Source of the DNA: Methanothermus fervidus DSM 2088
GTDB lineage: Archaea; Methanobacteriota; Methanobacteria; DSM-2088; Methanothermaceae
Length of the DNA: 32,000 nucleotides
Direction: 5' to 3'
NCBI GenBank assembly: GCA_000166095.1
Contig: CP002278.1
Coordinates: 390,001 to 422,000 of the forward strand
The notes beneath the pieces were generated by a model. That model ran no database searches, was not told the DNA's origin, and saw only the letters and a program-made list of their open reading frames with translations. The position numbers and the translations under genes are program-made. Below, piece by piece: positions 6,772 through 32,000 of this stretch (the first letter of the stretch is position 1; each line of letters starts with the position of its first letter).

Positions 6772-8631
6772 TCAATGAGGGATAGCCTTTGTCATGTCTT
6801 TTGGAATAATACTACCAACTTTTTGCATTTTCTCTATTAATGTTTTTTTCTTTTTACCTACAAGCACATGTTCCAAGACTTCCCCAAGTGTCTCAACTGG
6901 TACAATTTCGACTTTATCTTCATAGTGTTTTTCAATCATTACATCTTTATAGTTAGATTTTGGAATTAATACTTTCTTAATACCAGCCTCAGCTGCAGCC
7001 TCTATTTTGCTAGTTACACCTCCAACAGGTAACACTTCCCCTCTAACACTTAATGATCCTGTAAGTGCAACTGACTGATCTACAGGTATATTTTCAAGAG
7101 CAGAAATCACTGCAGCTGCAACTGATACACTAGCACTATCACCTTCAACCCCTTCATAGGTTTGTAAGAATTGTATGTGAATATCATAGTTAGAAATATC
7201 TCTTCCTGTATATTTTTTGATGAGTGCACTAACATTTTGTACGGCTTCTTTTGCAATTTTGCCTAATTTACCAGTGGCAATTATTCTTCCTTCTTCTTTA
7301 CTTTGTGATGGTACAGCTTCCGCAGCTATTGGTAATACTATTCCACTTCTATCACCTATTACAGCTAAACCATTTACACGACCTATTTCATAACCTTTAG
7401 ATTTGAAAACACTGTATCTTTTTCTATTTTCTATGTATCTGTCAGCTATTTGCTGTTCTAATGTTCTGGCATGTTTTTTAGCTTTAATTACGTGTTCTCT
7501 TCTAACTAATTTTGAGTTTTCACTTCTAGCAACGTCTCCAGCTGCTCTTATTAAACCACCTAAATCTCTTAATTTAAGTGTTAGCATGCCTTTTTTACCT
7601 GCCCTTCTCCTTGCTTCTCTTATTATTTCATCAATTGCTCCTCTGTCAAAATGTGGAATTTTTCCATCTTTTTTAACTTCTTGAGCTATAAACTGAACGA
7701 GTTTTTTTCTATTTTCAGGAGTATCTGGCATTGTATTTCGCATATAAACTTCATATCCATATCCACGAATTCTTGAACGTAGGGCTGGATGCATTCCTTT
7801 TAATGCATCTAAATTACCTGCAGCAACTAACACAAAATCACAAGGTACTGCTTCTGATCTTACCATTGCACCACTACTGGTCTCACTTTGGCCAGTTATT
7901 GCATATTTTTTTTCTTGCATCGCTGTCAATAATTCTTGTTGTGTTTTCATTTTTAAAGTACTTATTTCATCAATGAAAAGAACTCCCTTATGTGCTCTAT
8001 GAATCATTCCTGGTTCAACTCTTTCATGGGCTGGAGTACCTAAACCTCCGGATTGATATGGATCATGTCTTACATCACCTAACAATGCTCCAGCATGAGC
8101 ACCCGTAGCATCTACAAATGGTGCTTTTTTTCTATTTTCATTATTAACCAATAATTTTGGCACTTGAACAGATTCTTTAGTTTTTATATGTTGCATGGCT
8201 AAAAATACTAATGCAGCAGCTATTATACTCGCTAAGAACTCTTTTGTTATTATACCCATGAATATGATTGTGATGATTAAAAATAACATGAGCGAGTTTT
8301 TCTTTTCTTCTTGAGCTCTTGCTCTTCTTTTATAATTCATTACAATCTTTTTTCCTTCACCAGCAGGTACCACGCTAACCTTTGGATTGTTTGGATCTTC
8401 GGGATTTGGATACACTAAAATGTCTTCTAATTGTTCACGTGGCAATAGTTCTGCCATGGCCTGCGCAAGCATTGATTTACCAGTTCCGGGCTCACCAATT
8501 AATAATACATTTCTTTTTTGTTTTGCAGCCTTTTTAATTGTCTCAACAGCTTCTTCTTGCCCTATAACCTGATCTATTAGCCTCTTAGGAACTTTAACAT
8601 CTTTTGTTGTTTTATATTCAAATTCTGACAT
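6772..8631 (-). CDS. lon: Archaeal membrane-anchored Lon protease (LonB)
   Basis: Walker A GEPGTGKS, Walker B VLFIDE, a hydrophobic insert (LMLFLIITIIFMGIITKEFLASIIAAALVFLAM) inside the AAA+ domain, and a C-terminal Lon protease domain (GDSASVSVAAAVISAL, GGVTSKIEAA). The ORF opens at 8664. ATG 8631 is preferred because GGAGG lies upstream of it. Confidence 0.95.
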   Translation of the reverse strand: MSEFEYKTTKDVKVPKRLIDQVIGQEEAVETIKKAAKQKRNVLLIGEPGTGKSMLAQAMAELLPREQLEDILVYPNPEDPNNPKVSVVPAGEGKKIVMNYKRRARAQEEKKNSLMLFLIITIIFMGIITKEFLASIIAAALVFLAMQHIKTKESVQVPKLLVNNENRKKAPFVDATGAHAGALLGDVRHDPYQSGGLGTPAHERVEPGMIHRAHKGVLFIDEISTLKMKTQQELLTAMQEKKYAITGQSETSSGAMVRSEAVPCDFVLVAAGNLDALKGMHPALRSRIRGYGYEVYMRNTMPDTPENRKKLVQFIAQEVKKDGKIPHFDRGAIDEIIREARRRAGKKGMLTLKLRDLGGLIRAAGDVARSENSKLVRREHVIKAKKHARTLEQQIADRYIENRKRYSVFKSKGYEIGRVNGLAVIGDRSGIVLPIAAEAVPSQSKEEGRIIATGKLGKIAKEAVQNVSALIKKYTGRDISNYDIHIQFLQTYEGVEGDSASVSVAAAVISALENIPVDQSVALTGSLSVRGEVLPVGGVTSKIEAAAEAGIKKVLIPKSNYKDVMIEKHYEDKVEIVPVETLGEVLEHVLVGKKKKTLIEKMQKVGSIIPKDMTKAIPH

Positions 8632-8664
8632 TTTTAGATCTATGCCTCCTACAATTTTTATCAA

Positions 8665-8754
8665 GTTTTATGGTGAGACAAATAAAAACTTAACATTAAC
8701 TATTATGTAACATTCAAGTATTTATATATCATCTTTATGTTGGGGAGATATACA
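8665..8754. promoter_or_regulatory. Divergent lon / cobQ intergenic promoter region
   Basis: TTTATATA at 8721-8728 lies about 27 nt upstream of the cobQ ATG 8755. On the minus strand, AAGTTTTTATTTG (about 8680-8692) lies upstream of the lon GGAGG (8645-8649). Confidence 0.35.
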
Positions 8755-10278
8755 ATGGCCAATAACCTTGCAAAGTGTTTAATGGTACAAGGCACATCAT
8801 CAAATGCTGGAAAGAGCGTATTAGTTGCTGCATTATGTAGAATATTTGCAAGAAAAGGATATAGTGTTGCACCTTTTAAATCACAAAATATGTCACTCAA
8901 TTCATATGCAACTGAAGAAAATTCAGAGATAGCAATGGCTCAAGCATTGCAAGCTGAAGCTGCCGGTGTGAAACCATCACATCATATGAATCCTATACTT
9001 TTAAAACCAAAAGGAGGGTTTATTTCACAAGTTATAGTGCATGGAAAACCTGTTGGAGATATGAGTTTTGATGAATACCAAAAAAAATTTCGAAAGAAAG
9101 CATTAGAGGCAATTAAAGAATCTTTGACATATCTAAGAAAACGTCATGACATAATAATAATAGAAGGAGCAGGTTCACCAGCTGAAATAAATATCCAAAA
9201 ATATGATTTGGCAAACATGAAAGTTGCACAATTAGCAGACTCAAATGTTATTCTTGTGGCAGATATAGATAGGGGCGGAGTTTTTGCATCAATTGCAGGA
9301 ACTTTTTTATTGCTGAATAAAGAAGATAGAAAAAGAATTAAAGGAATAATAATCAATAAATTTAGAGGGAATTTAGATATTTTAAAACCCGGAATAAAAA
9401 AAATTGAAAAAATTGTTAAAACACCAGTAATAGGAGTATTACCTTATAGTGAAGATTTGAGGTTACCTGAAGAAGATTCAGCATCCTTGGCTGAAAGAAA
9501 ATATAAAAAGAAAGGTAAAATAAAAATAGGAGTCATTCATTTACCAAAGATATCTAATTTTACTGATGTAGATCCATTAGAATCAGAACCAGACGTTAGT
9601 TTAAAATTTATAGGTTTAGATGATTCTTTAGATAAATTAGATGCAGTGATATTACCTGGTACTAGAAACACTGCTAAAGATTTAATTAAAATTAGAGAAC
9701 ATGGATTGGATGAAGAAATTATAGAATTTTCTAAAGATTCTATAGTATTTGGAATTTGTGGCGGATTTCAAATGTTGGGTACAAAAATAATAGATAAATA
9801 TCATAAGGAATCTAAATTTGAAGAGGTGGAAGGACTTGGACTCCTTGACTGTAAAACAAAATTTTCAATATCATCTAAAATAATATCTCAGAGCAAAGGT
9901 ATAGTCCTTGGCGGTGGAATATTTAAAAATATGGAAAATGTCGTTGTTGAGGGTTATGAACTTCATGAGGGCACAACAATATTAAAAAATGTTAGGCCTT
10001 TTATCAAAATAATTAAAGGTCATGGAAATTTATTACATGGTAAATATGATGGTGCAGTTAATGAAAATGTAGCAGGTACATATTTTCATGGTATATTCCA
10101 CAACCCGGAGTTTAGGACACAATTTGTAAATATATTGAGGAAAAAGAAAGGTTTAAAAACAAACAATCACATGAAAGATTACTACAAACAAAATAAAAAA
10201 TATTCTCTAGATAAATTAGCAGATATTGTCCTTAAGCATGTAGATATTAATAAAATAGAAGAGATGTTAGGGTTGTAA
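8755..10278 (+). CDS. cobQ: Cobyric acid synthase (CobQ/CbiP)
   Basis: N-terminal CobQ ATPase domain (MVQGTSSNAGKSVLVAALCR, IIIEGAGSPAEINI, NKFRGN) and a C-terminal GATase domain (GICGGFQMLG, GYELHEG, YFHGIF). The ORF opens at 8737; ATG 8755 gives the conventional N-terminus. Confidence 0.93.
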   Translation: MANNLAKCLMVQGTSSNAGKSVLVAALCRIFARKGYSVAPFKSQNMSLNSYATEENSEIAMAQALQAEAAGVKPSHHMNPILLKPKGGFISQVIVHGKPVGDMSFDEYQKKFRKKALEAIKESLTYLRKRHDIIIIEGAGSPAEINIQKYDLANMKVAQLADSNVILVADIDRGGVFASIAGTFLLLNKEDRKRIKGIIINKFRGNLDILKPGIKKIEKIVKTPVIGVLPYSEDLRLPEEDSASLAERKYKKKGKIKIGVIHLPKISNFTDVDPLESEPDVSLKFIGLDDSLDKLDAVILPGTRNTAKDLIKIREHGLDEEIIEFSKDSIVFGICGGFQMLGTKIIDKYHKESKFEEVEGLGLLDCKTKFSISSKIISQSKGIVLGGGIFKNMENVVVEGYELHEGTTILKNVRPFIKIIKGHGNLLHGKYDGAVNENVAGTYFHGIFHNPEFRTQFVNILRKKKGLKTNNHMKDYYKQNKKYSLDKLADIVLKHVDINKIEEMLGL

Positions 10279-19783: not shown

Positions 19784-19787
19784 TAAA

Positions 19788-21401
19788 CTGGTAAAATATA
19801 TCATTTTTACTGGTGGCGTAGTAAGTTCTGTAGGTAAAGGCATAACTTTAGCTTCAATTGGAAGAATACTTAGATCTTATGGTCTACGTGTAACAGCAAT
19901 CAAAATAGATCCATATCTCAACTGGGATGCTGGAACCTTAAATCCATATCAACATGGGGAAGTATTTGTCACTGAAGATGGTATGGAAACAGATTTAGAT
20001 ATTGGACACTATGAACGATTTTTAGATGTGAATTTACCAGGTGAAGCAAATATCACAACTGGAAAAGTGTATCTATCTGTTATCAAAAAAGAAAGAGAAG
20101 GTAAATTTTTAGGATCATGTGTTCAAATTATACCTCATGTCACAGATGAAATAAAAAGAAGGATTAGGAATATATCAGAAAGAGATGATAATGACGTTGC
20201 ATTAGTTGAAGTAGGTGGCACTGTAGGAGATATAGAAGGTCAACCATTTTTAGAAGCCTTAAGACAATTGAAAAATGAAGAAAATTATGAAAATGTGATG
20301 TTCATTCATGTAACTTATGTTCCTTATCTAAAGTCAGCTGGAGAACTTAAAACAAAACCTACACAACATAGTACAAAAGAGCTTAGAAGTATGGGTATAA
20401 ATCCTGACATGATAATATGTAGAAGTGAAATTCCCATAGATGTTAACACAAAAAATAAAATTGCTCATTTTTGTGATGTAGAACCAAATGCCGTTATAAA
20501 CGTTCCTGATGTAAGTTCGATATATGAAGTTCCACTAATTTTAAATAAACAAAACGTAGGGGAATATATAATAAATAGACTCAATCTAAAGCCAAGATCT
20601 CCTTTTGACATGTCTCGTTGGGAAAAAATTGTAAAAATGATGAAAGTAAAGAAACCTTCTGTTACTGTTGGCATAGTTGGAAAATATGTAGAACTAGAAG
20701 ACTCATATATAAGTATAAGAGAAGCATTAAGGCACGCAGCCGCTAAAGTTGGTGTAAATGTTAATATTGAATGGATTAGCGCCGACAAAGATCTCAAGAA
20801 AGAAAATTTTGAAAATTTAGACTCTATACTAGTTCCAGGAGGCTTTGGTTCAAGAGGCGTTGAAGGGAAATTAAAGGTCATACGACATGCTATGAATAAC
20901 AAAGTCCCAATTTTTGGAATATGTTTGGGCATGCAATGTATGGTTATTGAATTTGCTAGACAACATGGCCTCAAAAATGCTAACAGCACAGAATTTGACA
21001 AAAATACACCATATCCAGTTATAGATTTAATGGAAGAACAGAAAAAGATAAGAAAGATGGGAGGAACAATGCGACTTGGAGCTTATCCCTGTAAAATAAA
21101 GAAAGGCACAATTTCATATGATGCATATAAAAAAGATCTTGTATATGAAAGGCATAGACATAGATACGAAGTAAATAATGAATATAGAGACATTTTAGAA
21201 GAGGAAGGACTCGTAATAGCCGGAGTTTCTCCTGATAATTTTTTAGTTGAAATTATTGAACTAGAAGACCATCCATGGTTTTTAGGATGTCAATTTCATC
21301 CAGAATTTAAATCAAGACCCAACAGACCTCATCCATTGTTTGTTTCTTTCATTGAGGCATCATTGAATAATAAAAAATTAAGAGACAGGGATAAAAAATG
21401 A
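19788..21401 (+). CDS. pyrG: CTP synthase; conserved N-terminus has no canonical start codon (best candidate CTG 19788)
   Basis: The frame is open from 19776 and encodes VKYIIFTGGVVSSVGKGITLASIGRILRSYGLRVTAIKIDPYLNWDAGTLNPYQHGEVFVTEDGMETDLDIGHYERF, the conserved PyrG synthetase N-terminus. The first ATG (19983) is 65 codons into that domain. The C-terminal GATase has GICLGMQ and FHPEF. CTG 19788 follows GGTGATAAA. Confidence 0.9.
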   Translation: MVKYIIFTGGVVSSVGKGITLASIGRILRSYGLRVTAIKIDPYLNWDAGTLNPYQHGEVFVTEDGMETDLDIGHYERFLDVNLPGEANITTGKVYLSVIKKEREGKFLGSCVQIIPHVTDEIKRRIRNISERDDNDVALVEVGGTVGDIEGQPFLEALRQLKNEENYENVMFIHVTYVPYLKSAGELKTKPTQHSTKELRSMGINPDMIICRSEIPIDVNTKNKIAHFCDVEPNAVINVPDVSSIYEVPLILNKQNVGEYIINRLNLKPRSPFDMSRWEKIVKMMKVKKPSVTVGIVGKYVELEDSYISIREALRHAAAKVGVNVNIEWISADKDLKKENFENLDSILVPGGFGSRGVEGKLKVIRHAMNNKVPIFGICLGMQCMVIEFARQHGLKNANSTEFDKNTPYPVIDLMEEQKKIRKMGGTMRLGAYPCKIKKGTISYDAYKKDLVYERHRHRYEVNNEYRDILEEEGLVIAGVSPDNFLVEIIELEDHPWFLGCQFHPEFKSRPNRPHPLFVSFIEASLNNKKLRDRDKK

Positions 21402-24264: not shown

Positions 24265-25012
24265 ATGCAAGAACTAAAAAGCAGTATATTTTCAACAAAA
24301 AAAGGCTTAAAGATTGTAAACAGTCCTACAAAATTGAAAATATTAAATTTGTTAATGGAAAATGGTGAAATGTATTTTAACGAAATTGTAAATGCCGTTG
24401 GAAAATCAAAATCAACAATATCTACACACCTAAAAGATTTAATTAATGAGGGCATTGTAAAATCGAAAGTTTCTCCAAGAAATCGTAGAAAAAAGATATT
24501 TTATGTAGAATCTAAATATTTAGGAAAAATAATGCAAAGAAGTCCATATAAATTTCATGAAAACATAGAAGATTTAAAAAAATTGTTAAAGGATGGAAGT
24601 AGAGGATTTTATAGACTCATGTTTCATCTAATTCGTGTTGAATTAATGAAAAAAGGTATAGATTTGGATCCTATCTTAAAAAATGTTGGAAAAAAACTTG
24701 GAAAAATAATTTATGATGAAGTAGAAGAAAAAAATTTTGAAAAGTTGTTAATTAAATTAGTTAATTTCTGGCAAAAATATGGTCTTGGAAAAATGGAAAT
24801 AAAAAAGAAAAAAACCTTTAGAGATTAAAGTATATGATTGTTTTGAATGTGGTACACTGCCAAATATTGGAAAATCAGCATGTGTGTTGGATTCTGGTAT
24901 TCTCAGCAATATATTTCAATTATATACTGGTAAAAAGGTAAAGGTAAATGAAAAAAAATGTTACGCACAAGGCAACGATTTTTGTTTGTTTGAATTATCT
25001 TTTGAAGAATAA
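24265..25012 (+). pseudogene. ArsR-like wHTH plus V4R-domain transcriptional regulator interrupted by a +1 frameshift in an A7 run
   Basis: Frame 1 gives the wHTH (SPTKLKILNLLMENGEMYFNEIVNAVGKSKSTISTHLKDLINEGIV) and the start of the V4R domain, ending ...GLGKMEIKKKKTFRD* at 24828. The next frame reads PLEIKVYDCFECGTLPNIGKSACVLDSGILSNIFQLYTGKKVKVNEKKCYAQGNDFCLFELSFEE* (stop 25010-25012), a textbook V4R C-terminal half with no Met of its own. The junction is AAAAAAA at 24808-24814. Confidence 0.75.
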
Positions 25013-26966: not shown

Positions 26967-27557
26967 ATGTATATAGCATTCGAAGGAATTGATGGTTCAG
27001 GAAAGACAACTATATGCAAGTATATTTCTTCATATTTGAGAAGAAACGGTTATAAAGTCCTTACTGTTGGATTCCCTAGCAATAATGAAATTGGTAAATT
27101 AGCTAAAAAAATGTTAAAAGGTGAAATTAAATGGAACGAAATAGCCTTTGAATTACTTATAACTGCTGATATGTTACAATGTAATCACAAAATTAAAAAA
27201 TTTTTAAAAAATGGAGGAATTGTTTTAAGTGATCGTAGCCCTTATTCAAGTATTGCATATAGGCCACATTTACGCAATTGGATAGAAAAAATACACAAAC
27301 CTTTAATTAAACCAGACATTGTTATATTTTTAGATGTGAGCGTAGATAATGCATTGAAAAGAATATATAAACATGACAAATATGAAAAAAAGAAATACCT
27401 AGAGATAGCAAGAAGAACATATTTACGTCTTTCTAAAGAGTTAAATTTTGTTAAGATCAATGCAAATAAAAATTTTAAAAAAGTATTTTTGGATGTAAAA
27501 CATATCATTGAAAGTTCAGTGAAAAATAAAAGACTATCACTCAGGCCTTCTCAATAG
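26967..27557 (+). CDS. tmk: Thymidylate kinase
   Basis: MYIAFEGIDGSGKTT P-loop, DRSPYSSIAY and an FLDVSVDNALKR lid region; 196 aa. GAGG lies upstream of the ATG. Confidence 0.88.
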   Translation: MYIAFEGIDGSGKTTICKYISSYLRRNGYKVLTVGFPSNNEIGKLAKKMLKGEIKWNEIAFELLITADMLQCNHKIKKFLKNGGIVLSDRSPYSSIAYRPHLRNWIEKIHKPLIKPDIVIFLDVSVDNALKRIYKHDKYEKKKYLEIARRTYLRLSKELNFVKINANKNFKKVFLDVKHIIESSVKNKRLSLRPSQ

Positions 27558-30500
27558 ATATCCTGCTGCTATTAATGCAATCAATATTATAACACCAATT
27601 ATTCCTGCAAATGGAATTCCTGGCTTTCCAATTCCCTTAGACACTGGTGTAATCTCATATGCTTTACCTGCTGCTCCAGCAGCTTGGGCTGCCCCCCTTG
27701 CACCAATTTCACCACCAACTCTACCTGAAGGACCTGAAATTCCTGGTGAAACTCCCCTTGTTGTTGCAGTTCCAATTCCTACTCTTCCTAATGCAGTTGG
27801 AGCTCCTAGTTGTGATGGTGCTCCTGGAATTGAAGGTTGTGGTGTAGTTGTTGGAATTCCAGGGATTGAAGGTTGTGGTGTTGTTGGAGCTCCTGGGATA
27901 GTTGAGGGAACTAAAACTTTTAAATATTCACTAGCCAAATTAAGTTGTTGAGATGTTAGCTGTACCATTCCACGAGAATAAGCTTGATAAATATATCTAC
28001 AAATCATTTCAGCTGCGGAAGCATCAAATTTTCTTAAAATATCTCTATTTAAGTAGATAGACACCAATCTATTCCACATATCTTTATTTATAACTTTAAC
28101 TAGCACATCTGTCGTAAATAAATCTCTAATTTGTAGTGCTACAGATGCATGTCCTGATGGTCCTTCATTTAGTTTTCCTTCGAGCCATTCTGGATTAAGC
28201 AAGGTTGTCACTATTGTATCATAATAAGATTCTTTTAAAGTGTTTACACGAGGAATTGCATAAGCAGTCTTTATAATATAACTTTCCATTTCCCTACCTG
28301 TTAAATATCTTACAGCGAAATTTATAAGTGCTGAAGCCCTGTAAAGACAAAGGCCTTCACCACTGCTCCTGTATGGCATTATTGCTATACTTGTTTCAAC
28401 AGTTCTCGTTAATAACTTAAGTAAGTTAGGACTGTGAATACCATCTAAGTCTGCTCCATATACATATGAATAATAATTAGTATACATTTCTGCTAATTCT
28501 TTTGGTGTCCAATCATCCTTTGACCAAAGAACACGATCTACTGAAACTCCATGTGGATCTGAACCAGGAGGCAATCCAAATAATCTTGATCTAGCTAATC
28601 TTTCTGATAATCTCTCTGATTCTTCTTTTGCCAATCCTGAGGAAATGAACTCATTTAAGAGATCTTGTTTTATTGATAAATAATGTTTTCGTAAAAAGTT
28701 GAGAGAAGTTGGTTCATTTAAGCTTACAATTCGTTTTATAGCATTATCTATTACTTTCAGAGCATTTGGAACAAGACTTCTGAAATTGTGTAAATCCAGT
28801 ATAAGAACATCGATTCTAGGCCTGCCAAACTCTTCTAACGGTACTATATCAGCTCCAACCAATTTTTCATTTTCATATATGGGTTTCAATCCTATTAATT
28901 CAAAGATAATAGCTAAACTAAGTCCTTGAGTTGGTATTAAATCTGAGATATCAATAGCAACTGTTTCTGGATATTTACCATATGTTTCTTTATATCGCTT
29001 TAAAAATTCATTTACACATTTTTTAGCGAGTACTATTGCAGCTTTATCTGGTACAGCGTCAGGATCAAATGAATACATATTACGTCCAGTAGGCAATGCA
29101 TTTAAGTTAGTTATTGGGTCTTTGGCTGGTACAGGATCAATAAATTCTCCATTTAAAGCTTTCAATACAGCGTTAATTTCATTTGAACAAGAGTCAATCA
29201 ATAATTTTTTTACTTCATCACGATTTCTATGTTCAGGATCATATTCAACTATTACATCTATGAATTTCTCTAAAGTTTTGTTGTCAGGCAACTCACCTAA
29301 TGTATGAAGTCCAAATGTTGTTAAAGTTTCTTGTAATTCTTTGAGATATTCATACAACTTATCTTTTAGTATAACAAAAGGTGTTTTTTCATTTGCCCCA
29401 ATTCTATCTTTTAATCCAGGTATTTCATTGATTTTATTCTGGATTAATTTTTCTAATACTTCCATTCTCTCAGTATTATTTAATGACTGAGCAGATTCCC
29501 ATGATTTTAAAAGTTCAGACAATTCTTTGAATTCTCCAAAAAGTTCAGTTTTTATTAAAGGTGGTGGGAGATATGACAAGGTGATACCATAAGCTCTCCT
29601 CTTTATAGGATTAATGACGGATTCCAAAGGATCATCCATTCTAAGCAGATGTATATATGGCAGATAACCTATCAAATTATTTGGCCAATCACTTTCTGTC
29701 ATGCCACAAGGTCTACCAGGCAACAATTCGAGAGTCCCATGTTGTCCTATACAAACCAATGCATCTGCATGAAACTTATTCCTAATGTAAAGGTAAAATG
29801 CTATGAATTGATGAGTTGGTGGTAATGTATTGTTATATAAATTCTGAAGTGATCCTTTCCATTTCCACACAGGATTAGGTCCTAAAAATATTTTACCTAG
29901 GATAAATCCAGGAATAACAATTTTATTTTTATATACCATTACATTGCCTGGTGGAGGTCCCCACACAGCCTCTACTTGATCTCTAAGTATTTTTGGAAGT
30001 GTATTATACCACTTTAAATATTCTTCTACATCAATTGTTATACAACCATTCTTTATTAATTCTTCAATATATTGAATATTTGTTACATTTTTTGGATTTC
30101 TTCCACATCTATTTATCATTTCCATAAGAAATGTAGGTGAAATTGAAACATTTCCTAAATCATATCCTGCTAGCTTCATGGAATTTAATAAATTAGCTAA
30201 GCTTTTATATAAGTTTAAACCATTAGTTACAGGCATTTTTTCATCATGTGTATTATCAAAATATACAATTGCTATTTTTTTATCTGAATTATTCTTTTTC
30301 CTGAGATTTATCCAAGCTGTAACCCTATCTACCAACTGTTTAATTCCAAATTCGTATGGCATATATTTCTTTTCGGGATACCCTGTATTTTCATCTATAT
30401 TTGTAATAATGTCTCCTCCAATGAGGATTGGCTCAATACGTCCTTGTACTTCAAAAATACAGAGCCAAAAGTATTCTAAACCTCTTAACCCCATTTTTTT

Positions 30501-31586
30501 GTTTTTTAAGTATTCATCAAGCGTTGTTTGTGAAAATACAGGTAACGGTCCCAAAACAGGTACATTAAGATCTTTATATAATTTTAAAGTTGCATTATCC
30601 GTCCAATATCCAAATTGAAGGCATGCAACAATTATATCCACTAATGGTTTTCCATCTTTCATGAAATATTTTCTTGATGAATTGATTGCATCATTTGTAT
30701 AAAAGTAAGGTATTACATTAAGGCCTCGAGATTCAAGCTCTCCTATTAGTTTTTTATACACTTCCATGTTGTTAGCTACATAATATCTACCTAATATGGG
30801 TACTCCAACCCACGGTTGTCCTTCTTTATATTTTCCAGAACTCTTATACCAAGTTATATATGACTGTAAATCTTGAAAAATAGTGCCGTAGGGAGCATCA
30901 GGATGATACAGAAAATCACTAGGTGGTGGTACAAATCTTGTTTCATTGAGAGTAATATTTATTACTCCCGCACGTCTTAATATTTCAAGTATGAGTCTTT
31001 TCATGTTTTCCTGACTTAACATTGGTGCTGCTATTCCAGCATAGGGTGGTGCTAACAGCTCAATTCCGATATCAGTTCTTGTAACATTTGGCTTCGTTGT
31101 CCCTAATACAAAAACTTTTGCACCAGATGGTAGTGAATTAATTATGTTCTGAAAATCTATAGGTGCATCAAGTTCTGTCCCATAGGTTAATCCAGTTACA
31201 GGATAACCAGGTCTTGTACATAAAAAGAATATATTAGCATCCTTAATATCCTCTTTAAATTTCATATAGACTGTAGAATTTAAGTTAATCAAATCCATAG
31301 TATATATTTTTAATGTGAAATTATAACCTTTAGGCTCTAACTCTTTTTTGTATGTTTCATACATAACTTTGTCAACAGTGCCTACAACACATCCAGTAAC
31401 CAATACAACCATTTTAGTGTTTTGAAGTTTAGATTGTGTAAGATTTTCCATTTTTATATCTGATGAATTTGTTGAAAGGTTGTTTGCAAATACAAAATTA
31501 CAACATCCAAATAATAACAAAATTAAAATTCCACAAAGGCAAACTTTCTTGTTTATACCCTTGCCTAGTTTCATAACTTTCACCAA
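27537..31586 (-). CDS. CobN/Mg-chelatase-H family protein with N-terminal signal peptide and C-terminal Pro/Thr linker plus membrane anchor
   Basis: 1349 aa. CobN blocks: CIGQHGTLELLPGRPCGMTESDWPN, NPIKRRAYGITLSYLPPP, ALNGEFIDPVPAKDPITNLNALPTGRNMYSFDP. N-terminus: MVKVMKLGKGINKKVCLCGILILLLFGCCNFVFANN. C-terminus: IPGAPTTPQPSIPGIPTTTPQPSIPGAPS..., a G/A-rich tract, then KPGIPFAGIIGVIILIALIAAGYLLRRPE. GGTGA lies 5 nt upstream of the ATG. Confidence 0.88.
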   Translation of the reverse strand: MVKVMKLGKGINKKVCLCGILILLLFGCCNFVFANNLSTNSSDIKMENLTQSKLQNTKMVVLVTGCVVGTVDKVMYETYKKELEPKGYNFTLKIYTMDLINLNSTVYMKFKEDIKDANIFFLCTRPGYPVTGLTYGTELDAPIDFQNIINSLPSGAKVFVLGTTKPNVTRTDIGIELLAPPYAGIAAPMLSQENMKRLILEILRRAGVINITLNETRFVPPPSDFLYHPDAPYGTIFQDLQSYITWYKSSGKYKEGQPWVGVPILGRYYVANNMEVYKKLIGELESRGLNVIPYFYTNDAINSSRKYFMKDGKPLVDIIVACLQFGYWTDNATLKLYKDLNVPVLGPLPVFSQTTLDEYLKNKKMGLRGLEYFWLCIFEVQGRIEPILIGGDIITNIDENTGYPEKKYMPYEFGIKQLVDRVTAWINLRKKNNSDKKIAIVYFDNTHDEKMPVTNGLNLYKSLANLLNSMKLAGYDLGNVSISPTFLMEMINRCGRNPKNVTNIQYIEELIKNGCITIDVEEYLKWYNTLPKILRDQVEAVWGPPPGNVMVYKNKIVIPGFILGKIFLGPNPVWKWKGSLQNLYNNTLPPTHQFIAFYLYIRNKFHADALVCIGQHGTLELLPGRPCGMTESDWPNNLIGYLPYIHLLRMDDPLESVINPIKRRAYGITLSYLPPPLIKTELFGEFKELSELLKSWESAQSLNNTERMEVLEKLIQNKINEIPGLKDRIGANEKTPFVILKDKLYEYLKELQETLTTFGLHTLGELPDNKTLEKFIDVIVEYDPEHRNRDEVKKLLIDSCSNEINAVLKALNGEFIDPVPAKDPITNLNALPTGRNMYSFDPDAVPDKAAIVLAKKCVNEFLKRYKETYGKYPETVAIDISDLIPTQGLSLAIIFELIGLKPIYENEKLVGADIVPLEEFGRPRIDVLILDLHNFRSLVPNALKVIDNAIKRIVSLNEPTSLNFLRKHYLSIKQDLLNEFISSGLAKEESERLSERLARSRLFGLPPGSDPHGVSVDRVLWSKDDWTPKELAEMYTNYYSYVYGADLDGIHSPNLLKLLTRTVETSIAIMPYRSSGEGLCLYRASALINFAVRYLTGREMESYIIKTAYAIPRVNTLKESYYDTIVTTLLNPEWLEGKLNEGPSGHASVALQIRDLFTTDVLVKVINKDMWNRLVSIYLNRDILRKFDASAAEMICRYIYQAYSRGMVQLTSQQLNLASEYLKVLVPSTIPGAPTTPQPSIPGIPTTTPQPSIPGAPSQLGAPTALGRVGIGTATTRGVSPGISGPSGRVGGEIGARGAAQAAGAAGKAYEITPVSKGIGKPGIPFAGIIGVIILIALIAAGYLLRRPE
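27823..27891. repeat. Tandem 33-36-nt coding repeat (Pro/Thr linker of the CobN-family gene)
   Basis: CCTGGAATTGAAGGTTGTGGTGTAGTTGTTGGAATT (27823-27858) is followed by CCAGGGATTGAAGGTTGTGGTGTTGTTGGAGCT (27859-27891), with a degenerate third start at 27892. On the minus strand these encode the IPGxPTT(T)PQPS units. Confidence 0.8.
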
Positions 31587-31677
31587 ATATGATAACTATT
31601 TGAAAAGTTATTATCCATTCTTGTCAAGGGAAAGTTTATAATTTTCCATTTAAAAGAAAAACATAAATTTTATAAAT
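31587..31677 (-). promoter_or_regulatory. Promoter/leader of the CobN-family gene with a short inverted repeat
   Basis: The minus strand carries TATA-like ATTTATAAAATTTAT and AAAATTATAAAC boxes. It also has the inverted repeat ATAACT-N8-AGTTAT (31592-31611) between the candidate TATA and the GGTGA SD. Confidence 0.3.
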
Positions 31678-31694: not shown

Positions 31695-32000
31695 TTAAAG
31701 TTTAAAGAATTTTTCTGCATTTTTATAAGAAACTTTTGCAATTTCTGAATCATTGAAATCTTTGAGTCGCATTTTATGTACAGTTTTTGGAACTGAAAGA
31801 GGATCTGAAGGTGCAGAACTCATGTCAGAGTTTAACATAAATTTGTCAACACCATATTCCTCTAAAATTGTTATAGCCTTGTCTATGGTTAATTTACCTG
31901 GTTGAATTGTGAGTCCAAGCATGCATTCTCTATCCACAACTTTGTCAACAACTTTATCATCAATATGGTCTATGACAGCTAAAGATTCATCTAAATTTTC
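31695..32000 (-). CDS. TatD-family metal-dependent hydrolase, C-terminal part (gene starts beyond the window end)
   Basis: The reverse frame is open from 32000 (ENLDESLAVIDHIDDKVVDKVVDRECMLGLTIQPGKLT...FMLNSDMSSAPSDPLSVPKT...NAEKFFKL*). The DH..D and SD..S/P patterns fit the TatD/amidohydrolase C-terminus. Confidence 0.7.
   Translation of the reverse strand, partial: ENLDESLAVIDHIDDKVVDKVVDRECMLGLTIQPGKLTIDKAITILEEYGVDKFMLNSDMSSAPSDPLSVPKTVHKMRLKDFNDSEIAKVSYKNAEKFFKL

Follow-up and report, generated by a model that had tools for sequence, protein, structure and literature searches.

HmuS of Bacteroides thetaiotaomicron, a membrane-bound relative of the class I chelatase large subunits CobN and ChlH, needs no AAA+ partners to convert heme to protoporphyrin IX and Fe(II); it carries a single transmembrane (TM) helix at each end of a periplasmic body, and its His538 is essential (PMC12583661, published in 2025). 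The HmuS of Porphyromonas gingivalis, described in 2026, has a signal peptide, terminal helices and a periplasmic exposure that was contrasted with the cytoplasmic location of CobN and ChlH (PMC13227078). Methanogens use CbiX/CfbA for cobalt and nickel insertion (PMC3087415), and the role of many archaeal "CobN" paralogues has been named as an explicit open question (PMC12583661). The stretch analyzed here, 32,000 nucleotides (nt) of the methanogen Methanothermus fervidus DSM 2088 (contig CP002278.1, positions 390,001 to 422,000; "the window" always denotes this whole stretch), encodes one such CobN-like protein, hereafter the window protein. By sequence, it belongs to the CobN/ChlH/HmuS superfamily of class I chelatase large subunits, very probably as a protein tethered to the membrane from the outside, and there is about an even chance that it acts in nickel acquisition, a nickel-starvation response being documented for an orthologue and presumed for the window gene. 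A search of a literature library retrieved no paper describing archaeal CobN-like proteins as extracellular.

Identity and start of the gene

A Pfam hidden Markov model search matched the protein to PF02514 (CobN-Mg_chel) at 696 bits against a cut-off of 24.5 (E=1.2e-208). The CobN-family blocks recognized in an earlier reading of the letters and open reading frames (ORFs), here called the sequence-only reading, were all three located: GQHGTLELLPGR at residues 610-621, NPIKRRAYGITLSYLPPP at 655-672 and LNALPTGRNMYSFDP at 824-838, with residue numbers here and below counted from the ATG at 31574. The scores fall below the equivalog cut-offs for CobN (388 versus 822 for TIGR02257; 357-477 versus 1248-1926 for the NF00464x models) and for ChlH/BchH (497 versus 829 for TIGR02025). 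The annotation "cobaltochelatase subunit of B12 synthesis," widespread for such genes, is corrected by the analysis as a whole.

The mechanical ORF of 1349 aa at 27537..31586 on the minus strand begins at TTG 31586, the start taken over in the sequence-only reading. The true start is more likely ATG 31574 (MKLGKG..., extending as MKLGKGINKK...), giving a product of 1345 aa, because a Shine–Dalgarno sequence, GGTGA, lies 5 nt before it, because orthologues carry the Shine–Dalgarno sequence GGAGGTGA at the same spacing from their own starts, and because TTG 31586 overlaps the GGTGA at 31580-31584. Neither of the internal methionines Met42 and Met55 is preceded by a Shine–Dalgarno sequence; the second of these is the M59 at which translation, as the earlier reading had allowed, might have begun so as to remove the signal peptide. 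The element before the first methionine is the only one found, and it supports translation of the signal peptide.

Predicted export and anchoring

The body of the window protein very probably lies outside the membrane. The signal peptide and the TM helix were called from hydropathy, from the -3/-1 and positive-inside rules and from conservation. At the N-terminus, four lysines among the first 10 residues precede a core whose best 10-residue Kyte–Doolittle mean reaches 3.30, and the core is followed by VFA/NN (the slash marks the cleavage site), fitting the -3/-1 rule. At the opposite end, a linker that begins with IPGAPTTPQPS-type repeats, encoded by a 36-nt tandem repeat at 27807-27899, leads into a 21-residue helix with a 17-residue Kyte–Doolittle mean of 2.92. 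The charges flanking both hydrophobic segments follow the positive-inside rule for a body outside the cell. A V-x-A-ended signal (for example, MKRFLLIALILLLISVPSVSA/ADNNTT), a low-complexity linker, one C-terminal helix and a short basic tail recur in every full-length relative of the clade, drawn from Methanothermobacter, Methanobacterium and further Methanobacteriaceae at 41-56% identity. More broadly, 87 homologues found by word index fall into two classes, 46 with both signal and anchor and 35 with neither, and a neighbor-joining tree places the cytoplasmic ChlH/CobN types apart from the exported proteins.

A further line of evidence comes from N-X-S/T sequons, of which the sequence-only reading had noticed more than a dozen while granting them little weight. 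The window protein contains 16, about twice the 8.5 ± 2.7 expected from its composition (shuffle p ~0.006), at a density of 1.19 per 100 aa that only two of the 24 other window ORFs reach, both of them much shorter. Ten of the 11 full-length clade relatives have 1.4-2.6 times the expected number of sequons, the exception being P0011 at 0.61; the ratio is mostly 0.24-0.95 in bacterial exported homologues, which lack this glycosylation, and 0.67 in cytoplasmic homologues. Sequon positions are also conserved: within 3 columns, a sequon of the window protein is common to 6.9 of 13 relatives on average, compared to 1.5 for an asparagine outside a sequon. Because conservation, the two clean classes and the sequons constitute three independent lines, the topology amounts to more than a chance hydrophobic stretch. 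The arrangement first read from the letters, namely a signal peptide, a Pro/Thr and Gly/Ala linker, one TM helix and an RRPE tail around a chelatase-like body outside the cell, is therefore borne out. The lipobox (LFGC) considered alongside it is rejected, as the signals of Methanothermobacter orthologues have no cysteine and, elsewhere, the nonconserved cysteine has a leucine at -1 and is followed by the V-x-A site.

The C-terminal region was compared with known sorting and anchoring elements. It matched none of the NCBIfam sorting domains (PGF-CTERM or related archaeosortase signals). A NikN-like (PDGLE) helix was discarded as a chance TM resemblance, given a sub-threshold PF13190 match (E=0.0065) and matches in only 2 of 31 homologous tails. 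A [K/G]-x-Y-E-[I/V/M] motif stands 15-20 residues before the C-terminal TM helix (KAYE[IV] in the window, 27639-27668); it recurs in exported CobN homologues of archaea and of bacteria (Desulfobacca- and Nitrospirae-type) and matched no known sorting signal. Two public contigs carrying the neighboring tmk gene, L086 and L087, end about 35 nt inside the anchor-coding 3′ end of the gene (window 27537-27620; L086 8592-8607), and a third, L084, found via its rubrerythrin gene, appears to stop at the same point. No record matches the protein exactly from either start; neighboring proteins have exact matches in several public sequencing runs. There may be further copies of the linker/anchor region in the genome, or it may vary among strains.

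Clade and spread of the architecture

The window gene is an orthologue of Methanothermobacter cobN1 (MTH237/MTBMA_c06860). Its product is 56% identical over 1181 aa (BLASTP), spanning the full ectodomain, to CobN1 of M. marburgensis, D9PVN3; UniRef100_D9PVN3 ("cobN1," ADL58281.1) falls in the cluster of P0004 and O26339 (MTH237) in that of P0001. In the neighbor-joining tree, the Methanothermobacter CobN1 group and the window sequence are sisters within a distinct clade, and a scan of GTDB representatives returned a best match of 55% identity. This clade is small, with roughly seven 50%-identity clusters above 860 bits and the next match at 583. The window protein bears its markers, THDE, DPH and loss of a DD/DH motif, at 41-56% identity to its members.

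The sequence-only reading treated the exported architecture as exceptional, and this part of it has to be given up. In addition to the 46 of 87 homologues above, a signal and a C-terminal TM helix occur in 73 of 95 near-complete CobN ORFs in archaeal loci, most of the other 22 being cut by locus ends, and, among distant representatives 1100 residues or longer, in 59 of the best 138. Roughly one in two of the nearest members of the superfamily has the architecture. It also has a characterized precedent, since HmuS is exported with TM helices at both ends and a periplasmic body. Exported, anchored class I chelatase homologues are accordingly both known and common; what is new here is the remodeled cavity of the clade, an orthologue induced by nickel limitation, and the absence of operon partners.

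Structure and the central cavity

An AlphaFold2 model of residues 31-1215, built on an alignment of 87 sequences, has a mean pLDDT (predicted local distance difference test) of 90.8 and a pTM (predicted template modeling score) of 0.91. Foldseek searches of the PDB returned class I chelatase large subunits only. The best match was HmuS (9d26; TM-score 0.81, root-mean-square deviation 4.9 Å), followed by Mycobacterium tuberculosis CobN (0.74) and ChlH (0.70), over about 1300 columns. The cavity motifs are strongly conserved (GQHGTLELLPG, KRR within NPIKRR, LPTGRN and RPRIDV). His612 in GQHG, the equivalent of the essential HmuS histidine, is universal, and Glu616 of HGTLE is kept.

The markers of HmuS itself are missing. 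The HmuS head domain does not align by sequence; of the heme site 1 ligands Met79 and His254, the histidine (of HGR) was placed through the multiple alignment, in which its column reads Q/F (aligned QF-GY) and the histidine is absent. Nor is there a methionine-rich insertion, as no 60-residue window of the protein holds more than four methionines. At the site of the HmuS dyad Asp1208/His1209, most of the superfamily has DD or DH. The Asp-Pro-His and final Gly of GSDPHG, invariant in the clade, are not conserved elsewhere in the superfamily. Like THDE, the Asp-Pro-His stands where the family has another motif. The protein is therefore HmuS-like in fold and predicted topology without being a member of the HmuS family, and it has a remodeled cavity chemistry. 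Coordinates of these features are collected in Table 1.

Table 1. The CobN/HmuS-like gene of the window and its features, with residues counted from ATG 31574; processing, topology and functional equivalences are predicted
Feature	Coordinates	Strand	Residues and remarks
Gene for the CobN/HmuS-like protein, predicted exported	27537..31574	-	1345 aa from ATG 31574; stop codon 27537-27539
Shine–Dalgarno GGTGA	31580..31584	-	5 nt before ATG 31574
Signal peptide	31485..31574	-	1-30: MKLGKGINKK / VCLCGILILLLFGCC / NFVFA; predicted signal peptidase I cleavage after VFA30
Mature N-terminal segment	31413..31484	-	31-54; sequon-bearing; 31-47 of low confidence (pLDDT <50)
Head domain region	31017..31412	-	55-186; flavodoxin-like alpha/beta fold in the model; N-terminal to the Pfam match; weak N-terminal DUF3479 (PF11965) hit, 14.7 bits against a cut-off of 27.4
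CobN/Mg-chelatase body, PF02514	27927..31016	-	187-1216
THDE	30240..30251	-	442-445; invariant in the clade; replaces the family-wide F/N-P-P motif
GQHGTLELLPGR	29712..29747	-	610-621; His612 corresponds to HmuS catalytic His538, Glu616 to the ChlH glutamate of the E625K variant structure
DDPLESVINPIKRR	29595..29636	-	647-660; Glu652 corresponds to HmuS Glu577 and ChlH Glu660; 2-residue insert; KRR universal
GSDPHG	28548..28565	-	1004-1009; Asp-Pro-His and final Gly invariant in the clade; position 2 A or S
SSGEGLCLYRAS	28332..28367	-	1070-1081; site of HmuS Asp1208/His1209, DD or DH in other members
Pro/Thr repeat and Gly/Ala-rich linker	27615..27914	-	1221-1320; rich in G, P, A and T
C-terminal TM helix and RRPE tail	27540..27614	-	helix 1321-1341; predicted cytoplasmic tail 1342-1345

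A possible link to nickel

The functional clue comes from the orthologue. Under nickel limitation, CobN1 of M. marburgensis rises from an intensity of ~7e6 to ~2.0-2.7e9, about 300-fold, to make up ~1% of total proteome intensity, and this level is already reached at the mildest of the nickel-limited conditions tabulated (PMC12350162, a 2025 proteome). The same protein falls ~5-fold under iron limitation and ~2-fold under H2/CO2 limitation, and cobN2 is not induced by nickel limitation (PMC12350162). Co-induced with CobN1 are NikR1, the "predicted transporter" MTBMA_c10530, MTBMA_c10540 and MTBMA_c10580 (~300-fold); CobN1 is described there as a "possible metal-chelating protein," with no discussion of where it is located (PMC12350162).

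A second clue comes from operons of more distant paralogues. In total, 78 loci were analyzed, 77 distinct ones from the scan of GTDB representatives plus the Methanothermobacter locus, and many contain two to four tandem CobN paralogues. In 29 of the 78, exported distant paralogues, ~30% identical to the window protein, stand beside at least one of DUF2162 (a "predicted transporter"), MotA_ExbB (a MotA/TolQ/ExbB proton-channel protein) and DUF2149, each family occurring in about 26 loci. These loci come from Methanobacterium, Methanosarcina, Methanolobus, Methanocellales and the methanotrophic lineage ANME-1 (they include L008, L009, L013, L014, L016, L018-L020, L022, L025-L027, L036, L042, L053 and L068). 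In this arrangement, of which L014 (5194-12909) is an example, DUF2162, MotA/ExbB and DUF2149 genes come after a tandem series of one to four exported CobN paralogues; in L014 and L009, a CbiM-family gene and a PDGLE-domain (NikN-type) gene come next. These operons are the hmuS-hmuT-hmuU (MotA/ExbB)-hmuV (DUF2149) gene set of Bacteroidota. Because archaea, which have no outer membrane, retain the module, the probable client of the ExbB/DUF2149 pair is the chelatase-like protein itself, not a TonB-dependent receptor. MTBMA_c10530, whose name is of the DUF2162 style, lies two genes from a HisA-related gene, as does the DUF2162 cluster of Methanobacterium loci L008, L019 and L020; name and position together suggest that it probably belongs to the same module.

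Proposed mechanism and the points against it

The best explanation, for which the chances are roughly balanced, is an ATP-independent, extracytoplasmic HmuS-like protein for nickel acquisition. The protein would be exported by the Sec pathway through a signal peptide cleaved after Ala30 and N-glycosylated at the conserved sequons, both steps being read from sequence and conservation, and its linker of ~100 Pro/Thr/Gly/Ala-rich residues and single C-terminal helix would tether it to the outer face of the membrane. Outside the cell, neither ATP nor AAA+ partners would be available, and the protein would work without them, by analogy with the periplasmic heme dechelatase HmuS. The conserved central cavity of its ectodomain, with His612, Glu616 and Glu652 and the clade-specific THDE and DPH, would bind a nickel complex (a Ni-tetrapyrrole, for instance F430 or one of its breakdown products, or another nickel chelate) or possibly the bare Ni2+ ion. 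Ni2+ would then be passed to an uptake system, for which a NikMN-type energy-coupling factor (ECF) transporter and a DUF2162/MotA-ExbB/DUF2149 module elsewhere in the genome are candidates. The protein may be a high-capacity binding protein or an enzyme, either being compatible with a lost dyad and the high abundance of the induced orthologue. Catalytic nickel dechelation by the window protein is a doubtful prospect. So is, to a similar degree, the more ambitious proposal that it is the nickel counterpart of HmuS, an ATP-independent (de)chelatase that mines Ni-tetrapyrroles (F430, its derivatives, Ni-porphyrins) or loads and unloads a tetrapyrrole nickelophore, and that across the archaeal family is coupled to the proton motive force via DUF2162/MotA-ExbB/DUF2149 and not to AAA+ proteins.

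Several observations weigh against nickel acquisition or against catalysis. The Asp1208/His1209 dyad is absent from the entire clade of the window protein, which reads GE--GLCLYR with a gap at that site, and Glu652, kept in the window protein and the CobN1 group, is lost in deeper members of the clade; on both counts, catalysis may be altered or lost. Export is predicted from sequence and conservation, and nickel regulation was observed in an orthologue of another genus only. The window contains no transporter, no NikR gene and no significant operator that would link the gene to nickel. DUF2162, hmuT, MotA/ExbB (hmuU) and DUF2149 (hmuV) genes are absent from the window and from the loci of the closest relatives, and the probable assignment of MTBMA_c10530 to the module comes from annotation and synteny. 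To our knowledge, no member of the CobN/ChlH/HmuS family is known to handle nickel.

Alternative explanations

The most serious alternative, unlikely on balance, is that the window protein is a noncatalytic surface protein that uses the chelatase fold only as a scaffold, such as a metal-buffering, wall-associated or adhesin-like glycoprotein. The lost dyad and the uneven retention of the Glu577 equivalent across the clade would suit such a protein, as would the repetitive linker/anchor region at which public assemblies break; the abundance of the induced orthologue fits a binding protein more than an enzyme. What this explanation leaves unaccounted for is the strong conservation of the cavity motifs, including invariant THDE and DPH, and the nickel-specific regulation of the orthologue. 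That same regulation bears on surface capture or salvage of corrinoids or cobalt, whereby the ectodomain would bind cobamides, cobalt-free corrinoids or Co2+ and feed a B12/cobalt transporter. The founder CobN binds a corrin, salvage has been proposed for haloarchaeal CobN (PMC8305020), CbiM-type genes, in principle cobalt transporters, adjoin some paralogues, and cobQ is present in the window (8737-10278). However, cobQ lies 17 kb away from the CobN-like gene in a different transcription unit, the neighboring CbiM genes have a PDGLE (NikN-type) domain as partner instead of CbiN, genes of the BtuFCD type are absent from the vicinity, and the window holds no cobalamin riboswitch or other Rfam element. 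With the orthologue responding to nickel limitation, we regard this explanation as improbable. The proposal in the sequence-only reading that the protein captures a tetrapyrrole, corrinoid or metal at the surface instead of performing biosynthetic chelation thus survives in part: capture fits the data, while its corrinoid component finds no support and CobN1 points to nickel.

A heme dechelatase resembling HmuS, freeing iron from environmental or host heme, would be favored by structure, since HmuS is the best structural match, has the same topology and shares the His538 and Glu577 positions. It is highly improbable given the missing HmuS markers (Q/F in the His254 column, no methionine-rich insertion, no Asp1208/His1209), the ~5-fold fall of CobN1 under iron limitation and the absence of hmuY, hmuR and hmuTUV genes nearby. 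Hardly credible, finally, is a cytoplasmic biosynthetic chelatase, either CobN for B12 or a nickel chelatase for F430, in which the hydrophobic N-terminus would be untranslated or not a signal. Database annotation as cobaltochelatase subunit CobN and the placement of CobN1 among B12 genes (Kaster et al., 2011) speak for it. The scores far below every CobN/BchH equivalog cut-off (388 versus 822 for TIGR02257), the conserved signal peptide, sequons and C-terminal anchor, and the Shine–Dalgarno sequence before the first methionine only all speak against it, as does the use of CbiX/CfbA by methanogens for both metals (PMC3087415). No ChlI, ChlD, CobS or CobT gene was found in the window, whose sole AAA+ protein is the protease LonB (6772-8664); the earlier reading had likewise seen no such partner.

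Genomic neighborhood and side observations

Like its closest relatives, the window gene is solitary amid housekeeping genes, and a TatD-like C-terminus is encoded directly upstream of it (31695-31937). In Methanothermobacter, the order is cbiC, hemL, mtxX, uppS, a TatD-type hydrolase, CMD, ..., cobN1, FwdC-like and RFC, which matches published synteny. Between the start codon and the likely TATA region there are two palindromes, both resembling repressor operators. The first, 26 bp at 31589-31614, reads ATGATAACTAT-ttga-AAAGTTATTAT on the plus strand; the second, at 31626-31650, reads AAGGGAAAGTT..AATTTTCC. A NikR-type operator was rejected, as palindromes of such quality occur 68 times in the 32-kb window and the spacing is unlike that of published NikR boxes (PMC545781).

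Genes beside clade members elsewhere deserve mention. In Methanobacterium sp. MBAC-LM, hcgE-like (ThiF family) and hcgF genes (L006 1024-2246) lie 3-4 kb upstream of a clade CobN gene. The products of hcgE and hcgF build the cofactor of Hmd, a hydrogenase induced under nickel limitation. Small exported proteins of 146-152 aa, absent from the window, are encoded directly downstream of clade CobN genes in L005 (7044-7484) and L006 (9877-10323) and after a partial CobN ORF in L020 (980-1438). In their predicted mature form they start with HPGH(G/N), continue with a Ser/Gly-rich linker and have a TM helix at the C-terminus; they are possible metal-binding partners.

Within the window, which has a GC content of ~30% and Methanobacteriales-like gene content, no defense-system families were found. 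The CTP synthase gene (plus strand, 19786-21401) is called from ATG 19983, giving 472 aa, and other assemblies make the same call. Its conserved N-terminal P-loop region (KYIIFTGGVVSSVGKG...) continues in frame upstream for ~66 codons without ATG, GTG or TTG, which suggests a noncanonical start codon or a truncated gene. An ArsR/MarR-type helix-turn-helix regulator (24265-24828, plus strand) has 187 aa here and in some assemblies and 248 aa, with a C-terminal V4R domain, in others (L086 5300-6046); the difference is a strain-level truncation or frameshift.

Significance

Nickel demand is unusually high in methanogens, which require the metal for F430, [NiFe]-hydrogenases and carbon monoxide dehydrogenase/acetyl-CoA synthase (CODH/ACS). 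The 2011 genome analysis of Methanothermobacter stated that the nickel transporter was yet to be identified (PMC3087415). Two open questions, how nickel is scavenged at nanomolar levels and what archaeal "CobN" paralogues do, here converge on one testable hypothesis, because these proteins are predicted to be exported, CobN1 is among the proteins most strongly induced by nickel limitation, paralogues stand beside an hmuTUV-like module and NikMN genes, and HmuS is a dechelatase. A nickel counterpart of HmuS, if true, would be the first nickel-specific member of the superfamily and an unrecognized route of nickel acquisition in methanogens and anaerobic methanotrophic (ANME) archaea. The operons further suggest that HmuTUV works for the chelatase-like subunit itself instead of a TonB-dependent receptor. 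Conceivably, methane mitigation could target a surface protein that gut or rumen methanogens induce on nickel starvation.

Comparison with known systems

With CobN of the aerobic cobaltochelatase and with ChlH/BchH, the window protein shares PF02514, the overall fold and the motifs G-x-H-G-x-L-E, KRR and LPTGRN. Those subunits are cytoplasmic, biosynthetic and driven by ATP via CobST or ChlID, whereas the window protein is predicted to be exported, has no partner nearby and scores below all equivalog cut-offs. HmuS of Bacteroidota (B. thetaiotaomicron, 9d26, and P. gingivalis) is closer in structure, with the six-domain fold of the superfamily at the highest TM-score, an N-terminal signal or anchor, a C-terminal TM helix and, as predicted for the window protein, a body outside the cytoplasm that works without an AAA+ partner. 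Both have the His538 and Glu577 positions, and in both cases induction follows starvation for the metal concerned, as judged for the window protein from CobN1. They differ in sequence (~20% identity), in the methionine-rich insertion, the site 1 histidine and the Asp1208/His1209 dyad, all lacking from the window protein, and in setting, since the window gene is solitary, outside any hmuYRSTUV operon, in an archaeon with no outer membrane, and its orthologue answers to nickel, not iron.

The distant archaeal paralogues of the CobN-DUF2162-MotA/ExbB-DUF2149 operons belong to the same superfamily and resemble the window protein in their predicted export and anchoring and in the KxYE motif before the TM helix. 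At ~30% identity, they differ in keeping a DD-type motif, in having, in several cases, alanine for the HGxLE glutamate, in often carrying CarboxypepD_reg or other domains, and in sharing an operon with an ExbB/ExbD-like module and sometimes NikM/NikN. The nearest described protein remains CobN1 (MTBMA_c06860, D9PVN3; MTH237, O26339), which has been treated in print as a hypothetical B12 or metal-chelating protein with no remark on export. It comes from another genus, its downstream neighbors differ from those of the window gene, and nickel regulation is known for the Methanothermobacter protein only; the two have in common the signal peptide, the linker, the anchor, the motifs of the clade and an upstream TatD-like gene.

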